A stretch of 64,000 nt of DNA from Corallococcus sp. AB038B (GTDB taxonomy: Bacteria > Myxococcota > Myxococcia > Myxococcales > Myxococcaceae): NCBI RefSeq assembly GCF_003668955.1, contig NZ_RAWO01000002.1, forward strand, positions 279,605-343,604, read 5' to 3'. Each line of letters opens with the position of its first letter. Within the stretch, counting starts at the first letter, position 1. Below, in pieces: positions 16,906 through 58,439 of the stretch. The position numbers were made by a program, and so were the translations under genes. The notes below the pieces were generated by a model. It saw only the letters and a program-made list of their open reading frames with translations. It had not been told where the DNA came from and did not search any database.

Positions 16906-17110
16906 ACTCGCGTCGCGACCCGGGGGAAGCACCCGCCTTGCTATGACTTGCATGGCTTGGCTGTTTTCACGCATTTGAAGACATGTCCTGGAGGGCGCAC
17001 CGGATGAAGGCGTGCGTCCTGGCGTGCTATGTCCATGCGCATCGCGCGGGGGGCTTCCGCGTGGCGCTGCATGGGTGGGGGGCCCCGCCCGTCGAGGTGA
17101 GGCTTCCTTC

Positions 17111-19117
17111 ATGGTGTTCCTGCTCCCGCTTGGAGTGGACGGTGCGACGTTGGACCGTCGCCCCTGGGTCTCCGTCTCCATCGCCGCCATCTGTGCCGTG
17201 GCCTTCTTCATCACCTGGGTGGTTCCCTCGAACCCGGGCGGGGTGGGTGAGGGCGAGATTCGCGAGCTGCTCCAGGAGACGCTCGCCCATCCCGACCTGG
17301 AGCTGCCCACAGGCTGCACCGCGCTGCTCAGTGCGCACGGCAAGGCGCTGCTGGCCCAGTTGAAGAAGGAGGCGGAGGCGCCAGCCTGGGACGTGGATGT
17401 GAATGCGCTCCAGGCGCGGCTCGACGCGCACTGTGCGAGCGTCCTGGAGGCGAGGGATTCGGGTCTGCTCAACCGCCTGGGGCTCGTGCCCGCTCGGGGC
17501 CTGCTGCAATGGGGCTGGCTGACGTACATGTTCCTGCACCTCGGGTGGATGCACCTGCTGGGGAACCTGCTGTTCTTCTACGTCGTGGGGTTGCTGCTCG
17601 AGGATGCCTGGGGACGGCCGCTGTTCGCGGCCTTCTACGGGGTAGGGGGCCTGGTGGCGGGGATTGCCCACTTCGCGCTCGACACGCAATCCCAGACATT
17701 GATGGTCGGTGCCTCCGGAGCGGTGGCGGCGTGCATGGGCGCGTTCTGTCTGCGCTTCGCCATGCGCAAGGTCCGCGTGGGCTACCTCTTCTGGTTCCTG
17801 AAAATCTGGCGCGGCACCTTCGGTGTTCCGGGCTGGCTGTGGGCGGGCCTCTGGTTCGGCAACCAGGTGCTCGACTTCCTCTGGGGCAACAACACGGGCG
17901 TCGCGGTGATGGCTCACATTGGTGGGTTCGTCTTCGGCTTCGGCGCGGCCAGCGCGTTGCGTGTGACACGCATGGAGGAGCGCTTCGTCGCCCCCGCCAT
18001 CGCCGCGCGTGAAGGGGGCTGGGTGGCGGACCCGCGCATGCTGGAGGCTCAGACGGCGCTGGACGGCGGCGACCGGGAGAAGGCAAGGGCGACCTTCCAG
18101 CGCATCCTGGCGGACCATCCGGACAACACCGAGGCGCTGCTCTTCCTGGGGCGGATGGAGCTGGAGGACGGCCGGGTGCCTTCCGGCTCCGCGCGGGTGG
18201 AAAAGGCGCTGCAACTGCTGGTGGGACATGAGGTCCCCGAACCGCTCTGGCACGCGGTGGACCAGTTGGGGGAGCTGTTCCCCGTGGACCGGCTGCGCCC
18301 GGGTGTCGCCTGGCGCGTGGCGCAGGGCATGGACCAGGAGGGGGCTCCCTCCAACTCAGTGGGGATGGCCGAGTCGCTCTACGCCGCGGCCGGCAAGGGC
18401 ACTGGCGCCATGGCGGTGCGCGCCCTGATTCGAGCCGCGGAGCTGCGGCTGGCGCGCCGCGACGCGCCGGAGAAGGCAACGGAATACCTGACCCGGGCGA
18501 AGCCGATGGCGACAGGCGATGCCGCCGCGTTGGCGGAACGGATCGGCCAGCTGGAGTTGGAGGCGGTCCGGATGGAGGCGCGGATGAAGGACCGGGGAAT
18601 CGCCCTGGACACGGAGTCCTCCACGCCAAGGACTCAAGCAGTCGCGGCCCTGGCGCCCGAGTCGTCCGGAGGCTCCACGCTGCCCCCGCGAATCATCCCC
18701 TGTCGCATCCTGGGGCTGTCCGACAAGGCCCTGATGGTGGAGGCCCAGGGAGGACAGCGCCGGTCGCTGGCCGTCACGGAGGTCATGGCGGTGGCCGTGG
18801 GAATGCTGCCCATCGCCGGGCCCGAAGGGGCGGCCCCGCGGCAGACGGTGCTCACCGACCTGGTGGTGTCCTGGGGCGACCTGTCGCGAGGGCCGACCGT
18901 GCTGCGCATCCCGGCCGCCGGGCTCGGGTTGCCAGAGCGCTATCCTGGCCTCGCGCCGCGAGACGCCTACGCGCGCTTCCTGTCGGCGCTGCTGGAGCAC
19001 TCCAGCGCCAACGCCCTGCCGGACGCGCCCACGCTGGCCGAGGGCCGCTATCCACGCTTCGCCACCGAGGGCGAGCTCACGGCGCACTACTATGGGCAGG
19101 AGTCCGCGGCGGCCTGA
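17111..19117 (+). CDS. Rhomboid-family intramembrane serine protease with a ~370-aa C-terminal soluble extension (TPR-like region)
   Basis: TM core carries the catalytic GASGAV serine motif and a downstream AHIGGFVFG histidine. The start is uncertain; the upstream TTG or ATG at 17012 is possible. Confidence 0.65.
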   Translation: MVFLLPLGVDGATLDRRPWVSVSIAAICAVAFFITWVVPSNPGGVGEGEIRELLQETLAHPDLELPTGCTALLSAHGKALLAQLKKEAEAPAWDVDVNALQARLDAHCASVLEARDSGLLNRLGLVPARGLLQWGWLTYMFLHLGWMHLLGNLLFFYVVGLLLEDAWGRPLFAAFYGVGGLVAGIAHFALDTQSQTLMVGASGAVAACMGAFCLRFAMRKVRVGYLFWFLKIWRGTFGVPGWLWAGLWFGNQVLDFLWGNNTGVAVMAHIGGFVFGFGAASALRVTRMEERFVAPAIAAREGGWVADPRMLEAQTALDGGDREKARATFQRILADHPDNTEALLFLGRMELEDGRVPSGSARVEKALQLLVGHEVPEPLWHAVDQLGELFPVDRLRPGVAWRVAQGMDQEGAPSNSVGMAESLYAAAGKGTGAMAVRALIRAAELRLARRDAPEKATEYLTRAKPMATGDAAALAERIGQLELEAVRMEARMKDRGIALDTESSTPRTQAVAALAPESSGGSTLPPRIIPCRILGLSDKALMVEAQGGQRRSLAVTEVMAVAVGMLPIAGPEGAAPRQTVLTDLVVSWGDLSRGPTVLRIPAAGLGLPERYPGLAPRDAYARFLSALLEHSSANALPDAPTLAEGRYPRFATEGELTAHYYGQESAAA

Positions 19118-20049: not shown

Positions 20050-20058
20050 CCGTCCGTC

Positions 20059-21912
20059 TCAGCGTCTCAGGCTGTTGATCTGCTCCTCGATGAGGGCGCG
20101 GACCTTGGGATACAGCTTTTTTCGGCTGACGGAATGTGAAACCCGCATGAAGTAGGACAAGCCTCCGATAGAAACGGGAGGCGTGAACTCAAGCTTGTTC
20201 CGAGCAAGGGGGGACGGTTCAACAGCCTTATAGGGAACGTTCATGCCGCTCGCCTTGGGAAGAGCCTGCATGAACGGAGAAGAAACCAGGGTGACCTCCA
20301 ATTGCCCGACGCTTCGTTCCTTGAGAATGCCAACATGGGTCTCGAGCACTGCGCACAGCTCCGCGAGTGCCGCGACCGCTGGAATGCTGATCATTCCGCT
20401 GGCCTCGCGGAAGAGTCTCCCCGGATCGGTTGGAAGCGCCATCAGATTGGACGGCAGGTACTTGTTTGCTTTCAGCCAGACCACCAGCCAGTCAAGTGTG
20501 CGCCGGATCGTGGTGACGGTTTTTCCCTGTTCGGCGATCAGCGTGCTCACAGGGGCATGATTCGCCAGAAGGGTGAAGACGAGGTTCATCAAATCAGTTC
20601 GAGCGACGGTACTGGCATATCTGGCTTCACACTTTTCCAGCCGGCCAACGAAGTTGTCGAAGTTGGCATCAAGATGGAACTGCGCGTACTTGTCCTCCTT
20701 GGTGACGTCGACGTCGACGATCCGGTTCGCGAAGGGCGATTGCGCGTACTGGGCCTTGGGGGATGAAGTCGTGTTGTCGAATTTGTGGATCTGTTGCTCA
20801 AGGACCTGGGCAAGCAGGTCCCACAATGGACCGCTCAGGGTCTTCGGATTGATTTGAAGGAGCTTGGAGACGGCTCTCAGGGGGCTTGAGACATTCAAGT
20901 CGTCGAAAAAGCCCATGAGCGGGTAGCGTCCGCTGGCCTTTCGGGCCTGGAACGCCTTGAGCGCTGGCGACAGGCTGGTCTCGACTTTGTTCAGCTCGGC
21001 CTGAAGCCGATTGGCGAGATCGTTGTTGATGATCTGTCGATTCTTTGGGGCATCGCCTGTCATCTCCACGGGCACGTCGAACTTGATGACGTTGTTGAGC
21101 GCGCAGATGACCTCGCGGGCCTTGGCAAGGGCGGTCTTGACGCTGTTGAGGGTGTTGATGCAGCTGTCGTAGAGCGCCTTCCCCTTGGCCGGATCCATCA
21201 ACAGCTTCAAGTCAATCCATAGGGAAGGGTCGGCATCCTTGAGTCTCGTGGACTTGACGGCGTCCTCGAACACACGGGTGTCGAACGTTATCTTCTTGAG
21301 CTGGGCGCCGAAGTCGTCGAATTCGGACCGCTTGAAGGCATCGTGAAAAGGGAGGAGTGAGAAGTCGGCAACGACCCTCTGGGTCAGGTCGTATTTGTTG
21401 TAGACGTTGATGATCTTGCACTCCTTGTGGAGTGCCTTGGTGTTGACGTGGTGTTGCTTCGTGAAGAACGGTGTCGAGAGATAGGTGATGCTGCGGATCT
21501 TCCAGCGCTGGGGCCATGCGACGGCTGCCTGGGCCGTCAGTTCGTTGATGACATTCCCGCCATGTGAATGGCCAATGAGATGGAATGCGACTTCCTGGTT
21601 GAGGAAGCCCTTGTAGTAGGCGCTTTTCCCGTTGGCGCCACAGAGGCGGTTGGCCAGGTAGGTCCCCGCGATCGTACGGTTGGACGAGCCATTGTCCCCC
21701 GTCCATCCGTGAGCCGTGAAGATATGGACATTGGTGTAACGCTTGTGGATTTCGTCGATGGCAAGCCACAGGTCAGGGTTTTCCTGCCAGTACCAGTCTG
21801 GGTCGTTGATGCTTTTCTTGCGCTGATAACTCGCGGAGCGCGCCTTCAAGTCGCTGTTGACCGGGTCTACTGTTCCGCTCACCAAGACGATGATGTTGGG
21901 AATGTCGGACAT
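20059..21912 (-). CDS. Alpha/beta-hydrolase-fold protein, putative lipase/esterase (GHSHG nucleophile elbow); no signal peptide
   Basis: N-terminus MSDIPNIIVLVSGT..HGWTGDN....FHLIGHSHGGNV, followed by a ~400-aa helical C-terminal region. ATG at 21912; the ORF-track extension is rejected. Confidence 0.55.
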   Translation of the reverse strand: MSDIPNIIVLVSGTVDPVNSDLKARSASYQRKKSINDPDWYWQENPDLWLAIDEIHKRYTNVHIFTAHGWTGDNGSSNRTIAGTYLANRLCGANGKSAYYKGFLNQEVAFHLIGHSHGGNVINELTAQAAVAWPQRWKIRSITYLSTPFFTKQHHVNTKALHKECKIINVYNKYDLTQRVVADFSLLPFHDAFKRSEFDDFGAQLKKITFDTRVFEDAVKSTRLKDADPSLWIDLKLLMDPAKGKALYDSCINTLNSVKTALAKAREVICALNNVIKFDVPVEMTGDAPKNRQIINNDLANRLQAELNKVETSLSPALKAFQARKASGRYPLMGFFDDLNVSSPLRAVSKLLQINPKTLSGPLWDLLAQVLEQQIHKFDNTTSSPKAQYAQSPFANRIVDVDVTKEDKYAQFHLDANFDNFVGRLEKCEARYASTVARTDLMNLVFTLLANHAPVSTLIAEQGKTVTTIRRTLDWLVVWLKANKYLPSNLMALPTDPGRLFREASGMISIPAVAALAELCAVLETHVGILKERSVGQLEVTLVSSPFMQALPKASGMNVPYKAVEPSPLARNKLEFTPPVSIGGLSYFMRVSHSVSRKKLYPKVRALIEEQINSLRR

Positions 21913-21959
21913 GGCTTTTCTCGTGTCGTGAACTGGGAACAACAGGGCCAGGGCCGCGC

Positions 21960-22943
21960 TCACCACCCGCCGCTGGCGCCACCTCCGCCGGAACGACCGC
22001 CCATTCCCTTGAACGCGGTCTCCGTCAGCGGCTGGCTCTTCAACGCGGGATGGAGATCCAGCAGGTACTGGACCCACTTCTTCGCGTTGAGCTCCCGCGG
22101 CGTTTCGAATTCCGCCTTCCGGCGATACACGCCCCGCCATTCAGGTTGGGTTGCCCAAAGAGAGGCACCGTCATCCGTGCCATAGGTCTTGGGGTGGCCT
22201 ACGTTCAGACGGAAGCCCTTGGAGTGGACGTAGTTCGCGAGCAGGTTGCTCCAGAGGGAGATGATGGTCTCGCGGATGTCGACGAAGATCCCGGGATCCA
22301 CCTCCATGAGCTTGAACAGGAGCAGCGAGGATCGCTCGACCGCCGAGGACTCCAGGTAGAAGACGGGGGTGGGGCCGCCACTGTAGGGCGTGAACTTACC
22401 GCTTTCGACCTTGCCGACCTGGAGACTCCCTGCGTTCCATCCGGGCATCCCTGGCTGCAGGAGGCCGAAGACCCAGGACCGGCGGCCCGCGAGGAAGTGA
22501 TACGCATTGTATTGAATCAAGACGGAGAGCGCCGAAAGCGGCAGGATCGACAGGGGCTTCTCCAGGCCCTCCGAGAAGTTGCGCTTGAGCGTCTGCGCGG
22601 CGAACCCCTTGTTGGGATCCTGCCAGAGGACGTGGACCCAATCGCTGTGGAAGTCAGGCAGGTTGATGCCCAGCGCCGCGAGCTTGACGTCGAGCAGGAA
22701 GCGAAGCGTCCGGGTTTGCTCGAACTGCCGGGTCGACCAGGCCACGCTCGCCTGGTTCTCCTGCATGTTCTTGCCGAGCCCATTGAAGAACTTGGGAAAG
22801 TCCTTGGTGAACTCCGCCACGAGCAACGGGAGCTGCTTCTGCGGATCGCCCTGGAGCCCGGGGACGCTGAAGTGGATCCGGAATTGATTCACATGGAAGT
22901 TGCCACTGCCCCTGGCGATCTTGAGCTCCGTGAAGTCCATCAT
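21960..22943 (-). CDS. Hypothetical protein with a Gly-rich C-terminus
   Basis: 327 aa, no recognisable motif, C-terminus GMGGRSGGGGASGGW. Sandwiched between the two hydrolase genes. Confidence 0.45.
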   Translation of the reverse strand: MMDFTELKIARGSGNFHVNQFRIHFSVPGLQGDPQKQLPLLVAEFTKDFPKFFNGLGKNMQENQASVAWSTRQFEQTRTLRFLLDVKLAALGINLPDFHSDWVHVLWQDPNKGFAAQTLKRNFSEGLEKPLSILPLSALSVLIQYNAYHFLAGRRSWVFGLLQPGMPGWNAGSLQVGKVESGKFTPYSGGPTPVFYLESSAVERSSLLLFKLMEVDPGIFVDIRETIISLWSNLLANYVHSKGFRLNVGHPKTYGTDDGASLWATQPEWRGVYRRKAEFETPRELNAKKWVQYLLDLHPALKSQPLTETAFKGMGGRSGGGGASGGW

Positions 22944-22958
22944 CCACCTCCTGGTGGG

Positions 22959-24725
22959 TTACCGGGGACCAGAAGAGCGCTGTGCCGAGCTTCTTCCCAG
23001 GCTCCCCTGGTTGATGAGGGGTAGCCTCGTCGCCACGTACGTATTGTCACGGTCCATGGTCAGCCGGTCCGGTTGAAGCATCTTTGCGTCGAATTTCGGA
23101 GGAGGAAGATGCAGCGACTTGATGACAAGGCCTTGCATTCCCCCCACTTCATCGAGTGCGACCTTCAGCGTCACAAGCGGAGGAAGGAGTGTGCGAGCGA
23201 GTTTGGGCAGGGGAGAGTCGTAAGACATAACCTCTTTCATGAAGGACTTGCCCGGAGCCCCCATGATCGCGTCGATCTGCTTCATCACCGACCGGTAGAG
23301 TCCCGGGATATTGAGCACCCCCAGGCGTTTCTGTCGCATCTCCTCGACGATGGGGCTGTGGATGTTGTCGTTGGACTGGCCGGATGACTGGGGGCCTACC
23401 GTGAGCCGGGTGCGTTTGGTGGTCCCGTTGGGGCCCAGCAAGCGCTGGCTGTGGAGAGCCCCAAGCGCCCCTCCCACGCTTTTGGCAGCATCGTAGTCCC
23501 CTCCGGCCCAGGCGATTAGCCCCGCAGAGAGCAGTTCCTTGATGTTGGAGGTCCTCATCGCCGCTGGGAACAGCTCCCTCTTGACGACGATCTTGAGGAC
23601 GATGGTCAGCACATCGGTGAGGAGATCATCTACCTTGCGCAGAGAGCCATTCTTGAGAAGCCTCCGCAGCTCCGCCGTGGCGGCTCCCTCCAGGATGGTG
23701 GCGCTGCCTGCAAGCAACGTCTCGCCTGCGAGTGAGACGACATCTCCCTGGGTGAGATAATGAGTCGCCAGCGGACCCTTGGGGGACTTGAGGCGGTTCG
23801 CGGTCTTTCTATCGACGCCGGGTGAGTTGAAGGTCACCACCTGGAGAACCGAGTCCCCGAAATCGACCGCCACCCGCTGCGCCATGGCGCCACCCAGGCT
23901 GTGTCCGACGACAACGATGTCCTTCCTGCCAATGCGCGTCAGCAGTGTCTGGAAGAGCGCGCGGGTCTGCTTGAAGGCAGTTGCGCCAACCCCTGCGGGG
24001 TCCATGTCCGCGACGGCATCAGGTGCCTTCTCGAACTCGGTGCCGCGGACCGCGATGATGGGATGGTTTCCACGGGATGGCTGCAGCCAGTAGGCGAACA
24101 CGCCATGGGTCTTGTTATGGGGGTCGCTGCCCTCCATCTGGACAATGGTGTAGTACAGGGGCTGTATGCCCGGCTTCTTGGAGTAGGGGCGTTTGGTTGA
24201 GACGGCATAGGTCGCCGGGAACTTCAGCTCGGGCATTGCCCAGAGCTCCGGCGTTTCAGCGCGATACAGGAACCTGTCGACCTGGATGCCAGCCCGTGTG
24301 CCGCCGCCCTGGTTGTTCAGATAGGCGAAGTCGTGAGCCAGGTACTCGTAGAACTCGTGGTCGGGCGTGAAGTCCTCGGCCAATGGCTCGGGTGGCGCCT
24401 TGGGCATGACGATGGGCCGCGTGGCAACCCGGGTGTTGTCCTGGAGGATGTGCTGGGTCTGTCGACGGAGCGCGTTCAGATCAATACGAAGCGCATTGGA
24501 AGGCGACGCGTGTGTCTTTGCCGCTCCCGAGCCGGACGCCACCGCCAACACGTTGGACTCCGGGATGTAGACCTTGTCACCCGGTTTGATGTGGTCGGGA
24601 TTGGGTCGTGCCTTCCGGAGCGCGGCGTTTCGTGGGTCTTTGTATACGACGCGCCAGTCCGCGATCCGGTAGGACACCGCGATGCTGTACAGGGACTCTC
24701 CAGCCTTGACGACATGCTGGGTCAT
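22959..24725 (-). CDS. LysM domain + class-3 lipase (Lipase_3) fusion protein; no signal peptide
   Basis: N-terminal LysM (HVVKAGESLYSIAVSYRI...IKPGDKVYIP). Lipase_3 signatures IIAVRGTE and VVGHSLGGAMAQ. Its ATG overlaps the stop of the giant upstream gene as ATGA. Confidence 0.65.
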   Translation of the reverse strand: MTQHVVKAGESLYSIAVSYRIADWRVVYKDPRNAALRKARPNPDHIKPGDKVYIPESNVLAVASGSGAAKTHASPSNALRIDLNALRRQTQHILQDNTRVATRPIVMPKAPPEPLAEDFTPDHEFYEYLAHDFAYLNNQGGGTRAGIQVDRFLYRAETPELWAMPELKFPATYAVSTKRPYSKKPGIQPLYYTIVQMEGSDPHNKTHGVFAYWLQPSRGNHPIIAVRGTEFEKAPDAVADMDPAGVGATAFKQTRALFQTLLTRIGRKDIVVVGHSLGGAMAQRVAVDFGDSVLQVVTFNSPGVDRKTANRLKSPKGPLATHYLTQGDVVSLAGETLLAGSATILEGAATAELRRLLKNGSLRKVDDLLTDVLTIVLKIVVKRELFPAAMRTSNIKELLSAGLIAWAGGDYDAAKSVGGALGALHSQRLLGPNGTTKRTRLTVGPQSSGQSNDNIHSPIVEEMRQKRLGVLNIPGLYRSVMKQIDAIMGAPGKSFMKEVMSYDSPLPKLARTLLPPLVTLKVALDEVGGMQGLVIKSLHLPPPKFDAKMLQPDRLTMDRDNTYVATRLPLINQGSLGRSSAQRSSGPR

Positions 24726-27700
24726 GACGCCCGCTCCTTCTGGAGCTGATTCCGCCGTCCCTGGCGTGCCAGCCCCAGGCCCAGCAGGAGCAGCAGTGCC
24801 AGTGCCGCGCCGCCATCCCCGCTGGTTCCACAGGCGCAGCCGCCGCCCGTGCCTCCCAGCGTCCGGGCCTGGCCCTTCAGCGTGAGCGAGGCCTCCGCCG
24901 TCGTCTCTCCTCGCAGGCGCAGCTTCAGCGTTCCTTCCGCGGGGCCTCCCACCTCTCCGTGGAAGGTGACGCTCACCGTCGTCTGGGCTCCCGGCGCCAG
25001 CTCCGCGTCCAGGGCGCTCGCGTCGATCACGAACGCCGGGTTGGTGTTCTCCACCACGCTCAACCTCGCCGGCGACGCGGACTGGTTCGTGAGCGTCACC
25101 GTGCGCGCCGTGCTGGTGGCGCCAATGTCCACCCAGCCCAGATCCAACTCGAACGGCTCGATGGTCAGGAAGCTGGCCACCGAGATGCCCGAAAGGGCCA
25201 CCAGCGCCGCGCGCTCCTGGTCCTTCGTGCCCACGACCAGCGTCGCCCTCGACGCGCCAATCTGCGTGGTGTCGTACTTCAAATCCAACGTCAGCGAGTC
25301 ACCCTGCGGCAGGGCACGGCCTTCCGCTCCCAGGATGGGAGACAGCACCACGAAATTCGCGGCCTGGGGCCCCTCCACCTTGGGTGGCATCACCACCAGC
25401 TCCTGGGTGCTGTCGTTGATGAGCACCACCTTGGTCGTCGCCGGCTCCGCCTGGCGCACGGTGCCGAAGTCCACCGTGCGGTTGAGCGCCCGGAACACCG
25501 TGGAGAGCCCCCGGCCTGACAACGATACCTGCGCGTTCGGAGACTCAAGGTCGCTCGTCACCACCAGGAGGTTGGCCTTCGACGTGACGTCCGGACGGGG
25601 GACGAACTTGACGGAGATTTCCCTCGACTCCTGGGCCGCCAGCGTGAAGGGGAGCGTGGGCGCTGAATCCAGGCTGAAGTGCGAGGGCTCGGAGTTCTCC
25701 GCCGCGCCGATGATTTCCAGCCCGCGCACCACCAACGGCTGGAGTGATTCGTTGGTGAGCCGCACGGAACGGATCGCCGAGGCGGAGGACTCGGCCACCC
25801 GCGCGCCAAACTCCAAGGTGGGCGTGGACAGGCTGAGCTGATTCGTCCGGCCCTGGCCCTTCAGCTGCACGAGCATGGTGCTCGTCTGGCTGTCTTCGGA
25901 GGTGATGCGCAGTTCCGCGGAGTAGGGCTGCTGGGTGCCCGGGCGGAACTGGACCGACACATCCATGCTGTTTCCTGCGTTCAGCACCAGCGGTAGCGAA
26001 GGCTTCTGCAGGATGAACGACGTCGGATCCGCCGCGTTCAGCGAGATGTCCTCCACCTTGAGCGTGCTCGATTCCGTGCCTGCGCCCCCGGAGCCAGCCG
26101 GCAGTGCATGGGTCAGCCTCAGTACGATGGCCTCCGAGGTCGTGTTCACCCGGACGCCTCCAAAATCAAGCGACCCGTCGAAGGCCTGGGCGTCCTTGCG
26201 GGTCACCGCGAGCCTTGCCAGCGTGGCCATTCCCTGCAGGCCGAGCTCCAGCGGAGCCTGGGAGGATGCCTCCACCCGCACCGAGGCCTTGGTCGTCCTG
26301 AGTCCGCCCGTCGCCCCCTGAGGGGTGAACCGAAGCTTCACGGAGGCACTGCCATTCGCGGGCACCCTGGGCAGCGTTTCCTGCACGGAGAACTCCGAAC
26401 TCCCCGGAGGGAGCGTCACGGAGATGTTCGCGTCGGTGATGCCTGTATTGGTCACCGTCACCGTCTTTTCCAGGAACGAGCCGAAGTTCACGCGCCCGAA
26501 GTCGATACTGGAGGGCGACAGGCTCACGCCGCCCACTCCATCCACAATCAGCTTCACGATGGTGCCTGACGGCTCCGCGTTGCTGGAGATGGTCAGGTTG
26601 CGCTCGATGGTGAGGAGTTGGGTGGGCTTTGCCGAGATGTAGACGTAATGCTCAAGGCCGGGGGCCACCGTGAAGATGGGCCCGGGCACGTTGGGGCTCA
26701 GGGAGGATTGGCAAGCCGTGGTTTGCTGCGAGTCCTCGCGCAGGCAGAACTGGTCCGGGACCTCCACGGCATAGACCACCAGCGGGGCCTTGCCGATGTT
26801 CTTCACCACCAGCCTCTTTGAATCCCCTTCGACATTGAGCGCCTGAGGCGCGAATTCGGGAGCGCCGCCGGGCAGCGTCAACACGGGGATGGTGCCCCGG
26901 CCCGAGACCGTGATGGTCTGGATCTGGCTGTCGCTCGAATTGCTCTGCACCTGCACGGTTCCAGTCACATCCTGCGCGACGTCAGGAGTGAAGGTGACGT
27001 CGAGCAGGGCGGACTCACTTCGCTGGAGGAAAACGGGGAACTGCGGGTTGTTCTGCAGCATGGCCTTGAAGGGGCCGATCGCCGTCGACACATTCTTGAT
27101 TTCGAGTGGGGCGGAGCCGATGTTCTTCAGCACGACGGTCTGGGTGCTGGAGGTTTGCCGGGGAACTTCGTTGAAAACGAGCTGCGTCGGGTTCATCTGC
27201 AGCTGTGCCACGGCGGCAACGCCGGACAGCTTGACGACCAGGCCCGCCGTGGCAGGCGGCTTCGTGGCGAGTGAGAGATTGGCTGAGTAGTTGCCAGAGA
27301 GCTGTGGAGCGAACGTGACATCGATCTGGCGCGTGCCATTCACCGGAACGATGGCGTTGGGCCAACCAAGGACGTCGATGTTGAACGTCCCGAGGTTGGC
27401 TGCCACCTCCGCCAGATCAACGTCAACATGTCCTGTGTTGATGATGTCCAGGGAAAGCGTGTTGGAGCTGCCCGGCTGCGTGGCGGTGAAAATCAAGTCC
27501 GCCTTCGACGTGGTGAATCTGGCCTCCGCGCCAAACCCCACGAGTGGGAAGCTGCGCGTCGTCCTGAGATTGCTCGTGGTCCCCAGGTAGGTGATCTCCA
27601 GGCGGGCCTCGTACTTCAGGTCCTCGATGATGGGACTGAAGGTCACCCGGAAGGGCTGGGGGCGCTTCACGCCCTTCTCGAGCACGGGCTCGGAGCTGTT

Positions 27701-30580
27701 GACGTTGTCCACGAAGAACGCCGTGCCGGACGGCTCGATGTGGATGTCGGTGACCTTCAGTGGCTCGGAGGCGGTGCTGCTGTTGGTCACGTTGAGGCTG
27801 ATGTCTGCGTGGATGAGCTTGTTCTGCTTGTAACCAAAGTTGATCTCGGTCGCGGTGAAGATGGCGTTGGGACCATTGGAGTTGCCCTTCACGACGAGCA
27901 CGGGCGGCAGCTGCCGGTCATTCGTGGTGAAGAAGCGCAGCCGCGTCTCCAGGTCGCCCGTGCTGGTCAGGGGACGGAAGCGCACCTTCACCTTGGTCTC
28001 TCCGCCTGGCTGCACGGTCTGGGGCAGGAAGTCGACGACCTGGAACAAGGCGTCGCTTTCCGCGGTGACCTTCGACAGGAACAGGGCCTGGTTGCCGGTG
28101 TTGCGCAAGGTCGCATCGGCCGTGGACTCTCCGCCGGGCGCCACGTTGGGCAACGTCAAGGGGTTGTTGACCAGGAACAGCTCAGGGGCGAACGCCTGTC
28201 CGGTGAGTGCCACGGGGGGCACGGGCTGCGAGGCATCCGTCTGGAGTTGGAGCGTCTTCGAATAGGTACCCGAGGTGGTCGCGGCGAAGGCCACCGTCAC
28301 CGCGGCGGTACCCCCGTTCTTCGCGACGGTCAGGCCCTCCGCCGGAATGCCGGAGATCGTGAACGGGGTCAGGACCCCGGGGGACACGGGGAACACCTTG
28401 ATGGGCCAGTTGGTGCTGTTCGAGAGGATCACCTGCTGGGTCGGGTACGGGTCGCCGACGGTGTAAACAGCGAAGGCCAGGGTGGTCGTGCTGACCGCCA
28501 GCGTGGTCTTGCGCGCGGTGCCATGGAGGGGAACGCTGGTCACGCAGGAGGTGGTGGGCGACGTGCCGAAGGTGAGCACGCCATTCACGGCACCGCTCTC
28601 GTTGGGGCCGGGGTTGAACGTGATGAAGAGCTCACGCCCCGCCGGGCCTGGCGCCAGGGTGAACGCCGTGCTGGGGCTCACGGAATAGGCGCTGCTCCCC
28701 GTCGTCACGGTGGGCGTCACCGTCAGCGGGACCGACCCTGTGTTGGTCACCGTCACCTTCTTCTGCTCACTGCCCACGTCTCCTGCCTCCTGTTCGGCGA
28801 ATTCGAACGAAAGGGGGTCGATACCCAGGCAGGCGTTGCCCGGCGTCGTGGTGCCGGACAGATTGAGTTCGGGGGCGGCGGTGTCGTTGCTGGTGAAGGT
28901 GAGCTTGCCGGTCGTGGCGCTCGTCGGCGTCGGGTGGAAGATCAGCTGCAGGCGCTGGGTATCTCCGGGCGCGAGGCTGAAGGTGCCCGAGGTGTCCACC
29001 CGGAAGGGTGAGTCCTGTGGCAGCGTCATCTGGGTCACCGTGAGCAGGCTGTCCCCGCCGTTCTTGACCGTGACCTCCTGGGGAGCGCTGTCGGTGTTGA
29101 AGGGCGTCTGCGCAAAGGCAATCGCGGTGCGGCTCAAGACGAGCTTCGGGCTGGATGGCGTGGTGCCTGAGAGCGTCAGGGACTGATCGGCGACATTGCT
29201 CTTGATGACCAGGGTGTCGGAGGCAGCCCCGGACGCACCCGGCCGGAACGTCACATTCAGGCGTTGGGTCCCCCCCGGGGCGATGCTGAAGGGGGCCGAT
29301 GTATCCACCCGGAAGGCGGAGCCCTGGCTCAACGCCAGTTGGGTCACGTTGAGCGCACTGCCGCCTTCGTTCCGGAGCGTGACCTCCTGGGGGATGCTGT
29401 CTGTGTTCAGCGGCGTCTGCGGGAAGACCATCGTCGTGCGGCTCAAGACGAGCTTCGCGGGAACGACCGCCGGAGTCGCGCCAGCCAGCGTGACGGCGGG
29501 CACGTCGGTGCCGGCGATGGTGAGGCTGAGGGTGTGGTTCCAGGTGCCCGTCACCGTCGGGCGGAACGTCACCCCCAGACGTTGGGTGCTGCCCTTCGCG
29601 AGGCTGAAGGGGCCCGTGGTGTCGACGCGGAACGGTGAGTTGGCGGGCAGCTTGACCTGGCTCACCGAGAGCAGTCCGTCGCCGTCGTTCCGGACGATGA
29701 CCTCCTGGGTGACGCTGTCGGTGTTCACCGGCGTGGCCTCGAAGGCCAGCGCGGTGCTGCTCACATAGAGCTTCGCGGGGGACAGCCCCTCACCGGTGAG
29801 CATGGCGGTTGGCGGGGCGGGGCACACGGCGGACGCGCTCGTCAGGAAGAGCGAGCCCGAGACGGGGCCCAGGTCGTTAGCGGTCAGGGGAGTGAAGGTC
29901 AACGCGAGCGTCGTCGAGCTCGCGGGCGGGATGGTCACCGTGGCGCCGGACACGTTGAAGGGCGCGGTGGCGGAAGGCTCCATTGTGAAGTTCGTATTGC
30001 CCAGGTTCATCACCGTGACGTTGCGCGGTGTCGAAGAACCCAATTCATGGGCACCGAACGCCACGGACGTCTGGCCGAGGACGACCAGTGGGCCCAGGGC
30101 CTTTCCATCCAGCGTCACGACGATCGACGGGGCGGCTGGATCGTTCGTGTGCAGCGTCAGCGTGCCGTGGAAGGTCCCGGGCTGAAGCGGCTTGAATCCA
30201 ATCTTCAAGGTCCTTGCGTTCGTGCTGCTCAGGGGCGTGTTCGGCACGGGGCAGTTGGTGTCGCATTTGTTGGACGACGTGTCGAAAATGCCCTCGAAGG
30301 TGAAACCCCCGGTGACGCTCACCCGGTGAATCGTGAGCTCCGTGGTGCTGGTGTTGAACAGCTTGATGGATTTCTCCGCCGACAGAGTCTGGCACGGGGC
30401 CTGGTCGTTGAAGTTGACGAGGGTGTCCGACACGCTGAGCGCCGCCGCGGGATCCTCGGGTCGCAGCGCCGCGCCGACGGTGCTCTTGGCGGTGCCGGAC
30501 TCCGGTGCCTTCTCCACCTCGGGACCGCAGGCGGTCAGGACGCACAGTGCAGCCGTCAGGATGAACAGGATGCGTTGCAT
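24722..30580 (-). CDS. Giant (1952 aa) MYXO-CTERM-anchored surface lipoprotein built of ASH / choice-of-anchor-D-like Ig-fold repeats
   Basis: Lipobox LTAC at the N-terminus. About 15 repeats of ~100 aa (..F..T.V...S..Q.V.L.N.G...L.V..V.L.....F.V....PF.L.PG..Q.L.V.F.P...G....L...SN). C-terminal GGGCACGTSGDGG + hydrophobic helix + RQGRR matches the MYXO-CTERM sorting signal. Confidence 0.8.
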   Translation of the reverse strand: MQRILFILTAALCVLTACGPEVEKAPESGTAKSTVGAALRPEDPAAALSVSDTLVNFNDQAPCQTLSAEKSIKLFNTSTTELTIHRVSVTGGFTFEGIFDTSSNKCDTNCPVPNTPLSSTNARTLKIGFKPLQPGTFHGTLTLHTNDPAAPSIVVTLDGKALGPLVVLGQTSVAFGAHELGSSTPRNVTVMNLGNTNFTMEPSATAPFNVSGATVTIPPASSTTLALTFTPLTANDLGPVSGSLFLTSASAVCPAPPTAMLTGEGLSPAKLYVSSTALAFEATPVNTDSVTQEVIVRNDGDGLLSVSQVKLPANSPFRVDTTGPFSLAKGSTQRLGVTFRPTVTGTWNHTLSLTIAGTDVPAVTLAGATPAVVPAKLVLSRTTMVFPQTPLNTDSIPQEVTLRNEGGSALNVTQLALSQGSAFRVDTSAPFSIAPGGTQRLNVTFRPGASGAASDTLVIKSNVADQSLTLSGTTPSSPKLVLSRTAIAFAQTPFNTDSAPQEVTVKNGGDSLLTVTQMTLPQDSPFRVDTSGTFSLAPGDTQRLQLIFHPTPTSATTGKLTFTSNDTAAPELNLSGTTTPGNACLGIDPLSFEFAEQEAGDVGSEQKKVTVTNTGSVPLTVTPTVTTGSSAYSVSPSTAFTLAPGPAGRELFITFNPGPNESGAVNGVLTFGTSPTTSCVTSVPLHGTARKTTLAVSTTTLAFAVYTVGDPYPTQQVILSNSTNWPIKVFPVSPGVLTPFTISGIPAEGLTVAKNGGTAAVTVAFAATTSGTYSKTLQLQTDASQPVPPVALTGQAFAPELFLVNNPLTLPNVAPGGESTADATLRNTGNQALFLSKVTAESDALFQVVDFLPQTVQPGGETKVKVRFRPLTSTGDLETRLRFFTTNDRQLPPVLVVKGNSNGPNAIFTATEINFGYKQNKLIHADISLNVTNSSTASEPLKVTDIHIEPSGTAFFVDNVNSSEPVLEKGVKRPQPFRVTFSPIIEDLKYEARLEITYLGTTSNLRTTRSFPLVGFGAEARFTTSKADLIFTATQPGSSNTLSLDIINTGHVDVDLAEVAANLGTFNIDVLGWPNAIVPVNGTRQIDVTFAPQLSGNYSANLSLATKPPATAGLVVKLSGVAAVAQLQMNPTQLVFNEVPRQTSSTQTVVLKNIGSAPLEIKNVSTAIGPFKAMLQNNPQFPVFLQRSESALLDVTFTPDVAQDVTGTVQVQSNSSDSQIQTITVSGRGTIPVLTLPGGAPEFAPQALNVEGDSKRLVVKNIGKAPLVVYAVEVPDQFCLREDSQQTTACQSSLSPNVPGPIFTVAPGLEHYVYISAKPTQLLTIERNLTISSNAEPSGTIVKLIVDGVGGVSLSPSSIDFGRVNFGSFLEKTVTVTNTGITDANISVTLPPGSSEFSVQETLPRVPANGSASVKLRFTPQGATGGLRTTKASVRVEASSQAPLELGLQGMATLARLAVTRKDAQAFDGSLDFGGVRVNTTSEAIVLRLTHALPAGSGGAGTESSTLKVEDISLNAADPTSFILQKPSLPLVLNAGNSMDVSVQFRPGTQQPYSAELRITSEDSQTSTMLVQLKGQGRTNQLSLSTPTLEFGARVAESSASAIRSVRLTNESLQPLVVRGLEIIGAAENSEPSHFSLDSAPTLPFTLAAQESREISVKFVPRPDVTSKANLLVVTSDLESPNAQVSLSGRGLSTVFRALNRTVDFGTVRQAEPATTKVVLINDSTQELVVMPPKVEGPQAANFVVLSPILGAEGRALPQGDSLTLDLKYDTTQIGASRATLVVGTKDQERAALVALSGISVASFLTIEPFELDLGWVDIGATSTARTVTLTNQSASPARLSVVENTNPAFVIDASALDAELAPGAQTTVSVTFHGEVGGPAEGTLKLRLRGETTAEASLTLKGQARTLGGTGGGCACGTSGDGGAALALLLLLGLGLARQGRRNQLQKERAS
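28840..29780 (-). repeat. Three near-identical tandem ~310-bp repeats inside the giant gene (approximate bounds)
   Basis: Repeated peptides PAKLVLSRT..F.QTP.NTDS.PQEVT..N.G.S.L.VTQ..L.Q.S.FRVDTS..FS.APG.TQRL in the translation. Confidence 0.5.
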
Positions 30581-30589
30581 GAGACGACC

Positions 30590-31105
30590 TCAGTTCTCGG
30601 CGTGGAGGGCCGGGGCCTTGGCGGAAGAGGAGGGTGGAGGCTTCGGGGCGGCGGGCGGCTCGGGCGGCTTCGCCGCGTCGTCGCTTTCCTTGGGCGCCGC
30701 GGGCTGCGTTCCCGTGCGGATGCGCCCTTCGAGCAGCTCGATGTCCAGCGAGCCGGGCGTGGGCGTGTTGACGAACTGCTGCCAGGTGCCGTCCGGTGCG
30801 GTGAACAGGAACGACACCGCCACCGGCGCGGCGGCGTCCGGCAGCGGCACCTTCAGGCGCTGCAGCGTTCCCGGATAGATGAGCGCGGACAGCAGCACGT
30901 CCGCGTCCGGTTGGAAGATGCGCGCGGAGACCTCGCCGTAGGACTCCACGGCGAACTGCTTCGGGTCCACCTTGCGCACCAGCATGTACAGCGGCCGGCC
31001 CTGGTTCGTCCCGGACGGCGCCTTCACGCTCAGGTGCAGCGTGCTCGGCTGGCACGCGGCCAGGAAACACAGCGCCAACGGGATACAGCTCGCCCACGGT
31101 TTCAT
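30590..31105 (-). CDS. tssJ: Small outer-membrane lipoprotein, putative TssJ
   Basis: Lipobox LAAC, a ~120-aa beta-rich core and a P/A-rich tail. Its ATG overlaps the tssM stop as ATGA. Assignment rests on size, lipoprotein nature and its position after tssM. Confidence 0.5.
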   Translation of the reverse strand: MKPWASCIPLALCFLAACQPSTLHLSVKAPSGTNQGRPLYMLVRKVDPKQFAVESYGEVSARIFQPDADVLLSALIYPGTLQRLKVPLPDAAAPVAVSFLFTAPDGTWQQFVNTPTPGSLDIELLEGRIRTGTQPAAPKESDDAAKPPEPPAAPKPPPSSSAKAPALHAEN

Positions 31106-34100
31106 CGCGGCACCTCGCGGAACGGGATCCAGGGCTCACCTTTGAGCCCGAAGCGCAGGTCCATCATCCCGTCCGTGGACAGGGCACCTCGCGCTCGCAA
31201 CGACCAACGGCGGTGCTGCGGGTCTTCCGTGGACTGCGAGGACTCCAGCAGCCGGAAGCAGCTCCACGCCGAACGTGACTTCTCCAGCGACGCGTACTGC
31301 ACGGACTGGTCCGCGGGCGCTCGCACCTCCAGCATCAGCGACGCCGTCTGCTGGTCCCACCACGCGAGCGGGAACTCCTGCCACGACGGACTCTGGTTGT
31401 ACGCGAGGAACGTCGTCTTGCCGCACTTGAGCGAACCCAGCGTCACGAAGCTGCCCTGCGTGGGTGCCTTCGGCAGTGGCAACGGCATCACCTGCAGCAT
31501 CAGGGGCCGGGGCCTTCCCTCCGGGTCCCACAACATGCGGGCCAGCCGCGACAGCCTCCCCAGCGTGGGCAACATCCCCTGCGGCAACGACAGCCGGGAC
31601 TGGAGCGCGCCTCGCGGCACCCACTCCGAGCCTCGCTCCTCGCACACCGGCGCCAGCACCCGCGTCACGAACTCCCAGAACGCTCCGTCCTGCTTGCGCA
31701 GGACCTCCAGGTCTCCCGGATCCACCTCCTGGGTCGCGTCCGGCGTGAACGGATAGCGATTCAGCAGCGGACGCAGGAACCGGCTGGATGCGTCGTCCCA
31801 GTGCCGCTCCAGGGTCCGCTCAATCTCGCGCTGCCCCAGGTCTCGCACCGCGAGGAACGGCTGGCGGAACGGTTGCCGCAGCTCTCCGATGAGCCCCTGT
31901 TGATCCAACCACGCGTCCACCTTGCGCAGGTAGGACGTGTCGTCCTCCAGCATCATCGCGAAGGCCAGCCGCCCCAGCGGCGTCAGCAGCTCCGGCAGCT
32001 TCGCGGCCCCGCTCGCCAGCTGCGCGCTGCCGGTGGCCAGGCCCCCGTTGAGCGACGCCGTCGCCTCCGCGGGCACCACGCCCGGACGGGGCACCGCGTT
32101 CAGCTCGTCCGACATCTGGGCCACCAGCGCGCGGTAGGGGTTGAGCGCCGTGTAGTTGCCCGTCTCATCCGGCTTCATCACCGTGGCGATGGGCTTGAAC
32201 GGCGCCACCGCGTTGCGCAGCGACTCGTAGAAGGGGCCGTCCAACGGCTCCAGCGCCACGCCCTGCGACACGTCGCGCAGCATGTCCACCAGCTCCGAGG
32301 ACGGCTGCGTGAGGCGCGACAGCTCCTCCGCCAGGAGCGCGGGAATCACCGCCTGGAAGCGGTAGGTGGACACGCGCTGGAACAGCCGGTTGCGGTACTG
32401 GAACGCGAACTGGTTCACCTTGCGGCGCACGTGCTCCTGGCGCTGCGACACCTCCTCCACCGGGAGCCCCGCGCCCTTGATTCGCGTGGTGAACTCGTCC
32501 ACCAGCGGGCGCAGCCGCGTGTCGAACTCCAGCCGGTCCGCCGCCAGGGTCGCGCCACCCCGCGACGCCACCGCCTCCTCGCCCTCCACCACGCCGAAGG
32601 GCAGGCGCCCCGTCTTCTCGTGGTAGCGCAGGAGCGCCTGGTGCAGCAGGCGCGAGCCGTCCTTGGGGCGGAACTCGAAGGTGCTCTGGAGCACCGGCAC
32701 CTGGAGCACCGCGGGGCCGTTGCCCGGCAGCCACAGGCCGTCGCGCACCAGCAGCTCCGCCACGGTCATCTTCTGCACCGCCTTCACGCCCAGGTACGCC
32801 TCTTCCTCCATGCGCAGCACGTTCGTCAGCGCGTCCCGGTGGTCGTTGATCCACGCCACCGTCTTGAGCGTGGAGGGGATGCCCCGGAAGCGACTGGTGT
32901 CCACGCGCGCCTCGGAGGCCGCCAGGAGCTCCAACGCACGCGGCAGGCTGCTGAAGCGCGCGCTGTCATCCAGCAGCGCCTGGAGCCGCCTGCGTTCGTC
33001 CTGCATGGACTCCAGCTCCGCGTCCAACCGCTCCAGCTCGCGCGGCTCCACGGCCCGGTTGCCCAGCAGGTCCTGCAAGCGCCGCAGGTGCGCCTGCCAC
33101 GGCATCAGCTGCGCCTCCAGCGTGAGCGGCTCCGGGAAGGGCCAGCGCGCCCAGCTGGCCTCGGGCGTGTCCGGCGCGGACCACGGCGGATTGCTCATGA
33201 CGACGTAGTCGGCCACCAGGGACTCATTCAGCCCCACCGCCGTCACCCAGGTGCGCCCCGCCTCCAGCGCGGCCACGTCGCCGGGGGACTCAACCTCGCT
33301 GCCTTCCGACACGAAGCTCCAGGTCGGGCGCGTCTTCAGGCTGGACAGCACCAGCTGCCCCAGCGGCTCTTCGCGCGAGCCGTGCAACGTGGCCAGCAGG
33401 TAGACGACCTGCTCCGGACGGCACGTGTCCGGCTGGCGGTGGCACTTCTCCAGCGCGGGCCGGATGTGGGCCTCTCGGATGCCCCGCGCCAGGCGCTGGC
33501 GCAGGTCCTCTCGCGCGCCGGTGAAGCTGTAGCGCAACAGCGGCCACGCGTTCATCGCCCTCCACAGTGAGTCCAGGGACTGGCCAGCCGCGAGCACCGG
33601 CTCCTGCACCGCGACCCCGGACACCTCCTGCCCCTGGTCGCGCATGCGCTGGACCATGTCCTCGAAGCGCTGCACGCGCGTGCGCGCCTGGCCCAGCCTC
33701 CACGCGAAGTGCCCGTACGCGGCCAACAGCGGCAGCGCGAACGCCAGGCCCAGCAGCGCCGCCCGGCGCAGGTGCGTGTGCATGTAGCGCTCGTGGACCG
33801 CCTTCGCCGTGCTCGCCTCGGCGGACACCGAGAGGACGTCCGGGTCCCTCGCGTCCTTGTCCGCGGAGGACAGCGACACCGTGGCCAGCCGGGGCGCGTA
33901 CGCCAGCGTCTGGCCCTCCATCAGCGCCGTCACGAAGCGCGACAGCGCCTCGAAGGGCGCGTGGCCTTCCGAATAGAAGCGCTCCAGCCGCTCGAAGGAC
34001 TCCACCGGCAGCGCCGTCAGGCCCAGCGCCAGGTACTGCTCCTGCGCCTTGAGCAGCGAACCCAGCTTGGGCTCCTGGCCGGGCGGGGGGAGGGGGAAGC

Positions 34101-34806: not shown

Positions 34807-35121
34807 TCAGCGCTCCCCCCAGCCCAGGACGCGCCCAGCCCGGCCCGAGCGATGCAGGGCCTCCAGGACGTCCTCCAACGTGTCCACCATGCCCGCGAAC
34901 GACGCGCGCGCCTTCTCCTGCTCCTCCGGTGACAACCGCGCGTCACCCGGCCCCGGCATCAGGCGGGCCAGCGTCTGGCCCAGTTCGTCCAGCATGGGTT
35001 CCAGGCCAAAGGTCCCGACCCCCAGGCGCGCGGCGATGAGCCGCCGCACCTCCTGGAGCAGGGCGGGCGCGGCGTCGATGGGGGGCGCGGGCGGAGTCTG
35101 GGGAGCGGCTTGAGGCTTCAC
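34807..35121 (-). CDS. Small hypothetical protein (104 aa) between tssL and tssM
   Basis: GTG start overlaps the tssL stop as GTGA. Its stop lies 4 nt before the tssM ATG. GC-rich codon bias. The ORF-track N-terminal extension is rejected. Confidence 0.4.
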   Translation of the reverse strand: MKPQAAPQTPPAPPIDAAPALLQEVRRLIAARLGVGTFGLEPMLDELGQTLARLMPGPGDARLSPEEQEKARASFAGMVDTLEDVLEALHRSGRAGRVLGWGER

Positions 35122-35756: not shown

Positions 35757-35767
35757 CGCGCCCCCCG

Positions 35768-55538: not shown

Positions 55539-55548
55539 AACCAGGAGG

Positions 55549-57876: not shown

Positions 57877-58439
57877 TGCCCACGCCCGTTCCCGCCAACG
57901 CCCGCAACCCGCTGCGGACCTTCCAGTTCCGGCTCCGGATGAGCACCTCCGCGGCCGGCGACTACGTGGCGGGAGTGCGCACCGTGTCCGGCCTGTCCGT
58001 CAGCGTGGGCGCCTATGAGACGTGGGAGGGCGGCAACAACCTGCACCGCTACGCGCAGCCCCACAAGGTGAACTGGGAGCCGCTCGTGCTGGAGCAGGGA
58101 CTGGCGCTGGACGACACGCTGGAGCGCTGGGCGCGCGCGGTGCTGGAGTTCGCGCGCACCGGCAAGGCGCCCGGCGAGCCGGTGAAGCGCGACCTCTTCC
58201 TCGACGTGTGGGACGCCTACGCGCACCCCACGGAAGTGCCGCCGCCCGGAGGCATGGAGGCGCGCATCCGCAGCTTCCACGTGCACAACGCGTGGGTGAG
58301 CAAGTTCCACGCCCTGCCCAAGCTGGACGCCATGGCGGGCGAGGTGGCGCTCCTGTCGCTGGAGCTCACCCACGAGGGCTGGGAGCCGGTGCCCCGGCCC
58401 GTGCTGTCCATGCCCGCGACGAGCCTCCCGACGCCCTGA
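57876..58439 (+). CDS. Tail tube protein (T4 gp19-like), copy 1
   Basis: FQFRLRM...VSGLSVSVGAYETWEGGN...NAWVSKF...LSLELTHEGWE. TGATG overlap with the sheath gene. Confidence 0.8.
   Translation: MPTPVPANARNPLRTFQFRLRMSTSAAGDYVAGVRTVSGLSVSVGAYETWEGGNNLHRYAQPHKVNWEPLVLEQGLALDDTLERWARAVLEFARTGKAPGEPVKRDLFLDVWDAYAHPTEVPPPGGMEARIRSFHVHNAWVSKFHALPKLDAMAGEVALLSLELTHEGWEPVPRPVLSMPATSLPTP

Follow-up and report, generated by a model that had tools for sequence, protein, structure and literature searches.

Immediately downstream of the membrane-complex genes of a type VI secretion system (T6SS) in Corallococcus sp. AB038B lies a group of genes that probably constitutes a T6SS effector–immunity island. 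The island occupies approximately 19.3–30.6 kb of a 64,000-nucleotide (nt) stretch (assembly GCF_003668955.1, contig NZ_RAWO01000002.1, positions 279,605–343,604 of the forward strand; hereafter, the window); here a Francisella-like (IglE/IglI) T6SS would have the variable 3′ end of its membrane-complex operon. On the minus strand, from 37.6 to 20.1 kb, the genes run in the order tssK, an open reading frame (ORF) with a DotU/TssL half, a divergent tssM, an IglE-like tssJ, a giant gene, a lipase gene, a gene for a protein of 327 amino acids (aa), and a hydrolase gene. Two layers can be proposed behind tssJ. The first would be a giant surface lipoprotein with Ig-like repeats and a MYXO-CTERM anchor, fixed in place but fast-evolving. 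The second would be an effector slot whose contents are exchanged between strains, and which in this strain would hold a LysM class-3 lipase, a START-like adaptor of 327 aa, and a serine alpha/beta-hydrolase of 617 aa (lipase/esterase-like). The lipase and the hydrolase, which lack signal peptides, would be loaded onto the T6SS, secreted, and fired into neighboring cells, where they would be toxic by attacking membrane lipids from the periplasmic side; a pentapeptide-repeat lipoprotein in the periplasm of the producer would bind and neutralize the hydrolase delivered by siblings. Judging from its protein sequences, the host strain is a Corallococcus close to C. exiguus: TssM is 96% identical to its homolog in C. 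coralloides KYC2213, and the lipase, the hydrolase, and the 327-aa protein share 97–99% identity with C. exiguus entries.

The variability of the slot was revealed by comparing six Corallococcus loci, including the window. A genome scan with TssM as the query returned only Corallococcus, and a metagenome scan returned two contigs that ended before the downstream genes; the synteny comparison is thus confined to the genus. Six different arrangements were found in the slot. Whereas the window carries the giant gene, the lipase gene, the 327-aa gene, and the hydrolase gene, the last convergent with the pentapeptide gene, the giant gene of KYC2213 (locus L001) is followed directly by the convergent hydrolase–pentapeptide pair, with the 2.8 kb containing the lipase and 327-aa genes absent. 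Strain M7 (L007), which has neither hydrolase nor pentapeptide gene, carries the giant gene, the lipase gene, genes for proteins of 328 and 361 aa, a DUF3304 lipoprotein gene, and a Tle1-like phospholipase gene, after which comes the rhomboid gene. The order in C. carmarthensis (L008), whose contig begins at the giant gene, is giant gene, 326-aa gene, and lipase gene, and that in bb12-1 (L020) is giant gene, 327-aa gene, and a gene for an enzyme with PG_binding_1 and GH19-like domains. The pentapeptide gene was absent wherever the hydrolase gene was absent (M7 and bb12-1), and the giant gene directly followed tssJ in every locus reaching tssJ (the window, L001, L007, L015, and L020; gap of 8–9 nt in the four measured); the linkage of the cargo to the T6SS is kept in these loci. 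The DUF3304 protein (36.6 bits) and the Tle1-like catalytic domain (PF09994, 93.7 bits) of M7 indicate that a recognized T6SS effector–immunity pair sits in its slot, DUF3304 being the domain of the experimentally studied Tli1 immunity proteins of Tle1 (PMC13133936).

In a 400-nt sliding comparison with KYC2213 and M7, tssM and tssJ were 87–98% identical at the nucleotide level (mostly 93–98%); within tssJ, identity was 87–94% and fell immediately downstream. The rhomboid flank was 91–94% identical, as opposed to 68–84% inside the region. Overall, the flanks were 91–98% identical, whereas the stretch that begins with the first codons of the giant gene and ends where the pentapeptide gene starts was 66–92% identical or absent. 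These conserved flanks and the divergent or absent interior place the bounds of the variable region at tssJ and the rhomboid gene, and support the description of this stretch as a variable cargo region attached to the T6SS membrane-complex genes on their 3′ side. Of the six contigs in the TssM scan, four broke inside tssJ. The draft contigs L002, L003, L004, and L006 (4.5–5 kb) hold just tssM and end at nearly the same places, approximately 430 nt upstream of tssM and inside or just past tssJ, which suggests a recurrent assembly problem at both edges.

Table 1. Principal features of the T6SS locus and its cargo region, with base composition (z, deviation of GC and GC3 from the other genes of the window)
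Feature	Position	Strand	Evidence and assignment	GC	GC3	z (GC / GC3)	Composition
Rhomboid-TPR gene	17012..19117	+	PF01694 86.5 bits; conserved outer flank of variable region				
Pentapeptide-repeat lipoprotein, 257 aa	19276..20049	+	PF00805 153.8 bits; lipobox LLTSC; convergent with hydrolase; candidate periplasmic immunity protein	0.651	0.717	-1.1 / -5.6	lowest GC3 in window
Alpha/beta-hydrolase, 617 aa	20059..21912	-	alpha/beta-hydrolase domain at N-terminus (GHSHGG, Ser116); C-terminal domain large and helical; candidate effector, new family	0.569	0.764	-3.5 / -4.3	clear outlier
327-aa cytoplasmic protein	21960..22943	-	predicted tandem START/SRPBCC-like fold; candidate adaptor/accessory	0.625	0.854	-1.9 / -1.8	mild outlier
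LysM + class-3 lipase	22959..24725	-	LysM at aa 1-56; Lipase_3; uncharacterized C-terminal region; candidate T6SS lipase effector	0.619	0.774	-2.1 / -4.0	clear outlier
Giant lipoprotein, 1952 aa	24722..30580	-	~15 choice-of-anchor-D / ASH Ig-like domains and MYXO-CTERM-like tail	0.658	0.874	-0.9 / -1.2	normal range
IglE-like TssJ lipoprotein	30590..31105	-	PF22361 IglE_N 104.9 bits (cut-off 26); conserved edge of variable region				
Divergent tssM (IcmF-like membrane-complex subunit)	31102..34803	-	IcmF_helical 29.5 bits; TIGR03348 and IcmF_C below cut-offs				
ORF with DotU/TssL C-terminal half	35118..36104	-	PF09850 DotU 59.3 bits, residues 159-324; TIGR03349 below cut-off				
tssK	36374..37627	-	TIGR03353 318.7 bits (cut-off 100); PF05936 also matches; first recognizable gene of co-directional T6SS run				
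IglI-family gene	41462..42433	+	NF041244 231.7 bits (cut-off 100)				

The base composition sets part of this region apart. Relative to the 32 other genes of the window (GC 0.692 ± 0.035; GC at third codon positions, GC3, 0.917 ± 0.035), the clear outliers are the lipase and hydrolase genes, and the GC1 and GC2 of the hydrolase gene are likewise low. The tetranucleotide distance peaked at 19–25 kb (z 3.5–8.5), with a moderate rise (z 2–4.5) over the repeat-rich giant gene. A preliminary description of this DNA had reported a fall to 55–60% GC across 10.5 kb, ending at the pentapeptide stop at 20049. The drop is real in the distal genes, but the giant gene (65.8% GC, GC3 0.87) is not outlying, and its tetranucleotide signal alone is raised. 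The proposed boundary fails as well, as the pentapeptide gene belongs to the module as the partner of the hydrolase and, having the lowest GC3, extends the atypical segment past 20050 to approximately 19.2–19.3 kb. The compositionally odd segment is therefore ~19.3–24.7 kb, pentapeptide gene included, rather than 20.05–30.59 kb. The GC3 of the cargo genes was lowered in every Corallococcus strain examined.

More than 443 proteins make up the family of the hydrolase, and almost all of them carry the annotation "hypothetical"; beyond Myxococcota, relatives of the enzyme occur in Vibrio, Oceanospirillum, Arcobacter-group bacteria, and cyanobacteria. In an alignment of 45 sequences, Ser116 (GHSHGG), Asp175, and His593 were invariant. 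Its AlphaFold model had a predicted local distance difference test (pLDDT) score of 83; no structural match was found for the large helical domain, and a search of Protein Data Bank (PDB) sequences with the hydrolase profile yielded nothing useful. The protein has no signal peptide and falls in none of the Tle Pfam families; PF09994 (Tle1-like) matched neither enzyme of the window. The start of the pentapeptide protein was placed at Met46 of the ORF, a choice backed by its homologs. Beyond the window, the convergent hydrolase–pentapeptide pair was found at seven further loci in four genera (L001, L015, L010, L011, L014, and L016/L017). Pentapeptide homologs of 36–73% identity lie convergently and directly behind hydrolase homologs in Myxococcus virescens, Archangium gephyra, Sandaracinus amylolyticus, and two metagenome contigs. 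The pentapeptide gene is present in two tandem copies in A. gephyra and in S. amylolyticus (L011 and L014). A hydrolase without a signal peptide next to a pentapeptide protein with a lipobox is what is expected of an effector and an immunity protein located in the compartment attacked; the lipase, whose only constant neighbor is cytoplasmic, has no such partner, and the island as a whole shows this feature in part. Because a cytoplasmic enzyme and a tandemly duplicating periplasmic lipoprotein follow the logic of the Tle–Tli pairs, it is probable, by analogy, that the pentapeptide lipoprotein confers immunity to the hydrolase, and that the latter represents a new effector family. In Vibrio quintilis (L012, 8001–14806), a hydrolase homolog (31%) without a pentapeptide gene is found at a distance of 3.7 kb from an orphan hcp, behind which come a lysozyme-like gene and a number of small ORFs.

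The lipase was found only in a few Corallococcus and was absent from KYC2213. It matches PF01764 Lipase_3 with 29 bits (cut-off 22) and LysM with 21.2–26.7 bits, carries the GxSxG nucleophile elbow GHSLGG (Ser276), and has no signal peptide; searching PDB sequences with it yielded nothing useful. In its domain and GxSxG motif, it agrees with the Tle2-like class-3 lipase effectors, a comparison made at the domain level. Experiments have confirmed T6SS effectors with an N-terminal LysM, among them one whose gene lies at a T6SS cluster's end (PMC4549250). The LysM part of a small LysM + PG_binding_1 protein that precedes the hydrolase in Myxococcus and Sandaracinus is approximately 37% identical to the N-terminus of the lipase, so that these enzymes are repeatedly accompanied by the LysM module. 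Both enzymes have relatives with fused domains of contractile injection systems (CIS): some members of the hydrolase family carry a CIS_spike_tip domain, and the nearest lipase relative outside Corallococcus (P0005) has an N-terminal extracellular CIS (eCIS) core domain. These fusions point to delivery. The ATGA overlap between the giant and lipase genes (24722–24760) arose by the loss of a spacer of approximately 96 nt that is still present in M7 (L007, 9850–10020); the ribosome-binding site and start of the lipase gene are conserved between the two strains, and the alignment with M7 contained no repeats at the junctions of the lipase/327-aa cassette.

The 327-aa protein has no signal peptide and is 61–97% identical within the genus. 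It belongs to a family of approximately 130 cluster representatives with many invariant polar residues, and its gene always stands just upstream of a differing gene, encoding the hydrolase, the lipase, the 361-aa SH3-like protein, or a peptidoglycan hydrolase. Such a conserved gene upstream of changing enzymes is the pattern of T6SS adaptor genes; those of the DUF4123/Tap, DUF1795/Eag, and DUF2169 families serve as markers of effectors (PMC7714669). By this analogy, the 327-aa protein is most likely an adaptor handing the downstream enzyme to the machine. Unlike the known adaptors, it has no family assignment and no sequence match to any adaptor family, and a tandem START/SRPBCC fold was predicted when its model was searched against solved structures. 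Its profile yielded nothing useful against PDB sequences, and the neighborhood of one distant homolog was uninformative. Relatives elsewhere are fused to LysM, a subtilase, or hemopexin repeats, and the protein might itself act as an effector. An unlikely alternative is that it is a cytoplasmic immunity protein of the lipase, of the DUF3396/TsiV kind. The protein does accompany the lipase in three genomes, and DUF3396 proteins are proven T6SS immunity proteins (PMC9635880), but neither its sequence nor its fold matches DUF3396. The name itself comes from UniRef, which labels one homolog of 67% identity (P0270) a "DUF3396 domain-containing protein"; the label found no support in Pfam, the PDB sequence search, or the fold.

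Several observations weigh against an effector–immunity island. No vgrG, PAAR, or hcp gene lies beside the cargo, and for this divergent T6SS no spike or tube gene could be identified with confidence. The hydrolase–pentapeptide pairs of M. virescens, Archangium, Sandaracinus, and the two metagenome contigs have no T6SS gene within 8–10 kb, so that the link of the pair to the T6SS rests on Corallococcus and on the domain fusions elsewhere. No adjacent gene for a periplasmic protein could serve the lipase as a classical Tli immunity gene, its constant neighbor, the 327-aa protein, being cytoplasmic. We know of no pentapeptide-repeat protein that acts as an immunity protein for a hydrolase; our literature search found no precedent for a periplasmic pentapeptide protein acting as an inhibitor, and the pentapeptide proteins that are linked to T6SSs are cytoplasmic spike accessories (PMC13373197, PMC13584744). 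Moreover, the gene run may contain internal promoters, on which the sigma-70 scan described below is weakly informative.

A rival reading does without weapons: in it, envelope, lipid-metabolism, or surface proteins are merely co-located, the pentapeptide protein is an unrelated lipoprotein or structural accessory, and the low GC reflects amino-acid composition and fast evolution. Toxicity is not part of any family annotation for the hydrolase, the 327-aa protein, or the pentapeptide protein; the depressed GC1 and GC2 of the hydrolase would be accounted for; and in several genomes, members of the hydrolase family are encoded at a distance from T6SS genes. We nevertheless regard this reading as decidedly unlikely. 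Unrelated hydrolytic enzymes are swapped at one slot between strains that are 93–98% identical in the flanks, which is unlike housekeeping genes; enzymes without export signals are paired with a periplasmic partner that is tandemly duplicated elsewhere; and the fusions to injection-system domains suggest delivery. Those same fusions could mean that the enzymes are cargo of another contractile system that merely adjoins the T6SS genes, such as the eCIS-type cluster at 53.5–64 kb, with its sheath, gp19-like tube, CIS tube, and GPD hub at 55.4–62.3 kb. This is very unlikely, as the enzymes of the window lack the N-terminal delivery domains of their relatives and lie approximately 30 kb from the tail-like cluster with unrelated genes between, while at least five Corallococcus genomes keep the cargo contiguous and co-directional with tssM and tssJ, and one of the strains (M7) has the T6SS-typical Tle1/DUF3304 pair. 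Neither of these alternatives, nor an immunity role for the 327-aa protein, is as well supported as a T6SS effector–immunity island.

The giant gene stands apart from the exchangeable genes. Its product has an N-terminal lipobox (LTAC), matches NF012200 with 421 bits over 15 stretches, and ends in GGGCACGTSGDGGAALALLLLLGLGLARQGRR, in which the MYXO-CTERM pattern was matched by eye; the tail scored 19.6 bits against TIGR03901, just under the cut-off of 20. From these signals, the protein is expected to leave the cytoplasm through the Sec pathway and to be displayed on the surface, and should not be a T6SS substrate. Its identity between strains is only 58–79% at the amino acid level, as opposed to 96% for TssM in KYC2213 and M7. 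Because it follows tssJ in all loci reaching tssJ and its composition is not outlying, the giant gene is a fixed but fast-evolving resident of the locus, not acquired cargo. Its fixed place, together with its fast and mosaic divergence, suggests that diversifying pressure acts on a surface protein; a functional tie to the T6SS, for example in contact or recognition, would be speculation. In M7, the lipobox of the giant protein is immediately followed by a long low-complexity insert rich in Asp, Ala, Gly, and Ser (L007, 4232–4900), and the database call of its gene begins approximately 650 nt late, the true start, with the same lipoprotein signal, lying right after tssJ. A horizontal acquisition of all 10.5 kb from tssJ to the pentapeptide gene as a single block is highly improbable and contradicted by the synteny. 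In its favor, the mean GC of the block is below that of the flanks, its tetranucleotide distance is raised throughout, and it diverges more than the flanks from strain to strain. Against it, wherever a Corallococcus locus reaches the junction, tssJ is followed by the giant gene, whose GC and GC3 values are within the range of the window; the distal genes come and go independently of the giant gene; and the pentapeptide gene, with the most atypical GC3, travels with the hydrolase. The cargo module of the preliminary description thus survives for the distal genes, which are atypical and vary in presence among close relatives, but not for the giant gene, and the synteny comparison divides the two in the same way: the slot genes vary between strains, whereas tssJ and the giant gene stay together. 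That account picked up a real feature and rightly suspected cargo controlled with the T6SS, but it lumped a resident adhesin together with genes that are exchanged, overlooked the pentapeptide gene as a partner, and judged the arrangement to be more novel than it is.

The coordinates, strands, and gaps that it gave for the four co-directional minus-strand ORFs after tssJ were exact: tssJ and the giant gene are separated by 9 nt, the giant and lipase genes overlap by 4 nt (ATGA), and gaps of 15 and 47 nt separate the lipase gene from the 327-aa gene and the latter from the hydrolase gene, whose stop lies 9 nt from that of the convergent pentapeptide gene. The genes tssK, tssL, tssM, and tssJ and the cargo genes are thus physically linked on the same strand, with gaps of at most 47 nt in the cargo run. 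The Shine–Dalgarno sequence (GAGG) of the giant gene overlaps the tssJ stop, and their junction is too short to fit a terminator. A terminator and an independent promoter between tssJ and the giant gene had been named as evidence that would speak against joint transcription; none was found there, and consensus scans detected no terminator- or promoter-like site at any junction of the cargo run. Across 19–38 kb, such sites were not enriched relative to shuffled sequences (12 versus 11.2 terminator-like and 1 versus 1.2 promoter-like); the promoter scan used the sigma-70 consensus, which says little about myxobacterial promoters. The tight spacing makes co-transcription plausible, and the cargo would then be expressed together with the membrane-complex genes. 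As the preliminary description had noted, mobility genes are missing; neither these nor tRNA genes or repeats mark the borders of the region, which does not show the marks of a classical integrative element. Borders of this kind are usual for effector–immunity islands, and they would be accounted for if the conserved flanks recombined homologously and so exchanged the content.

From its gene families, the T6SS of the window is real but rather divergent, with accessory parts of the Francisella type. As in the T6SS of the Francisella pathogenicity island (subtype ii; PMC5924787), an IglE-type lipoprotein and an IglI-family protein score above the curated thresholds, a 216-aa gene of no known family comes after tssB and tssC, and no ClpV was found among the annotated genes of the window. 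The markers IglC, PdpB, and IglF/G/J were not identified. Unlike the Francisella system, TssK and the sheath strongly match canonical T6SS families, the host is a soil myxobacterium, and the cargo seems antibacterial rather than eukaryote-directed. Our literature search found nothing specific on IglE/IglI-type T6SSs in myxobacteria. The identity of TssM across Corallococcus is 75–96%, and the start of the DotU/TssL protein is probably internal to the called ORF. On the plus strand, divergent from the membrane-complex genes, lie tssB, tssC, the IglI-family gene, and a TssF-like gene. The genes at 40098–40748, 42447–43391, 43789–45420, and 47157–47513, near the IglI-family gene, have no family match. 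The first of these (plus strand, 216 aa) and the gene at 40807–41544 (minus strand, 245 aa), located right after tssC, are both family-less, and their products resemble each other weakly (22% identity over 209 aa, E = 6e-11); they may be paralogous tube proteins (Hcp/IglC-like). An ORF between tssK and the DotU ORF (35768–36346, minus strand) matches two beta-helix families of the VgrG-tip and TvpC-like kinds, DUF2345 and DUF3540, below threshold and may be a small spike protein or a spurious ORF. A second contractile-tail-like set at 53580–64000, with a sheath (55462–57876), a gp19-like tube (58464–58955), a CIS tube (59916–60788), and a GPD hub-like protein (60990–62264), is probably an eCIS extending past the window.

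Variable effector–immunity islands attached to T6SS clusters are textbook knowledge. The preliminary description had considered the present arrangement undescribed, but it is standard for a T6SS cluster to end with effector–immunity genes, LysM effectors included (PMC4549250). The same source describes a close counterpart, Va01435/Va01430 of Vibrio alginolyticus, at the end of the T6SS1 cluster, where hydrolytic enzymes without signal peptides, one with an N-terminal LysM, are likewise co-directional at the edge of the structural genes; known islands of this kind are also strain-variable in content and atypical in composition. In contrast to the V. alginolyticus island, the cargo here is preceded by tssJ and the gene of a giant adhesin, not by vgrG, PAAR, or hcp, and would be secreted by a T6SS of a divergent IglE/IglI type. 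The Tle–Tli pairs (Tle1–Tli1/DUF3304, PMC13133936) similarly combine a GxSxG serine hydrolase lacking a signal peptide with an adjacent gene for a periplasmic lipoprotein, and in Corallococcus sp. M7 the slot itself contains a true Tle1-like/DUF3304 pair. The hydrolase of the window differs in being outside the Tle Pfam families and in its large helical domain, and its partner is a convergently encoded pentapeptide-repeat beta-helix, whereas Tli is a co-directionally encoded DUF3304 beta-sandwich. The division of these enzymes into Tle1–5 reportedly goes back to Russell et al. in 2013. A broader proposal, which we offer only tentatively and regard as doubtful, is that the hydrolase and the pentapeptide protein form a new, widespread effector–immunity family of contractile injection systems with a beta-helix inhibitor, that the 327-aa protein founds a new adaptor family through which an IglE/IglI-type T6SS takes up interchangeable enzymes, and that the giant adhesin, co-expressed with the membrane complex, aids target contact or recognition.

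The architecture of this locus, and the general principle of variable effector islands on T6SS clusters, are already known; what is new is the hydrolase family with its pentapeptide-lipoprotein partner, the candidate adaptor, and a Francisella-like T6SS in a myxobacterium. The analysis nominates a testable toxin–antidote pair, consisting of a member of an uncharacterized hydrolase family of several hundred proteins and a pentapeptide-repeat lipoprotein, and points to a candidate adaptor for the poorly studied Francisella-like T6SS outside Francisella. Myxobacteria use contact-dependent weapons in predation and kin discrimination, and Corallococcus is under development for biocontrol. With one conserved T6SS and at least six cargo sets in a single genus, these bacteria provide a compact natural experiment, in which the cargo sets predict which strains kill or tolerate each other.

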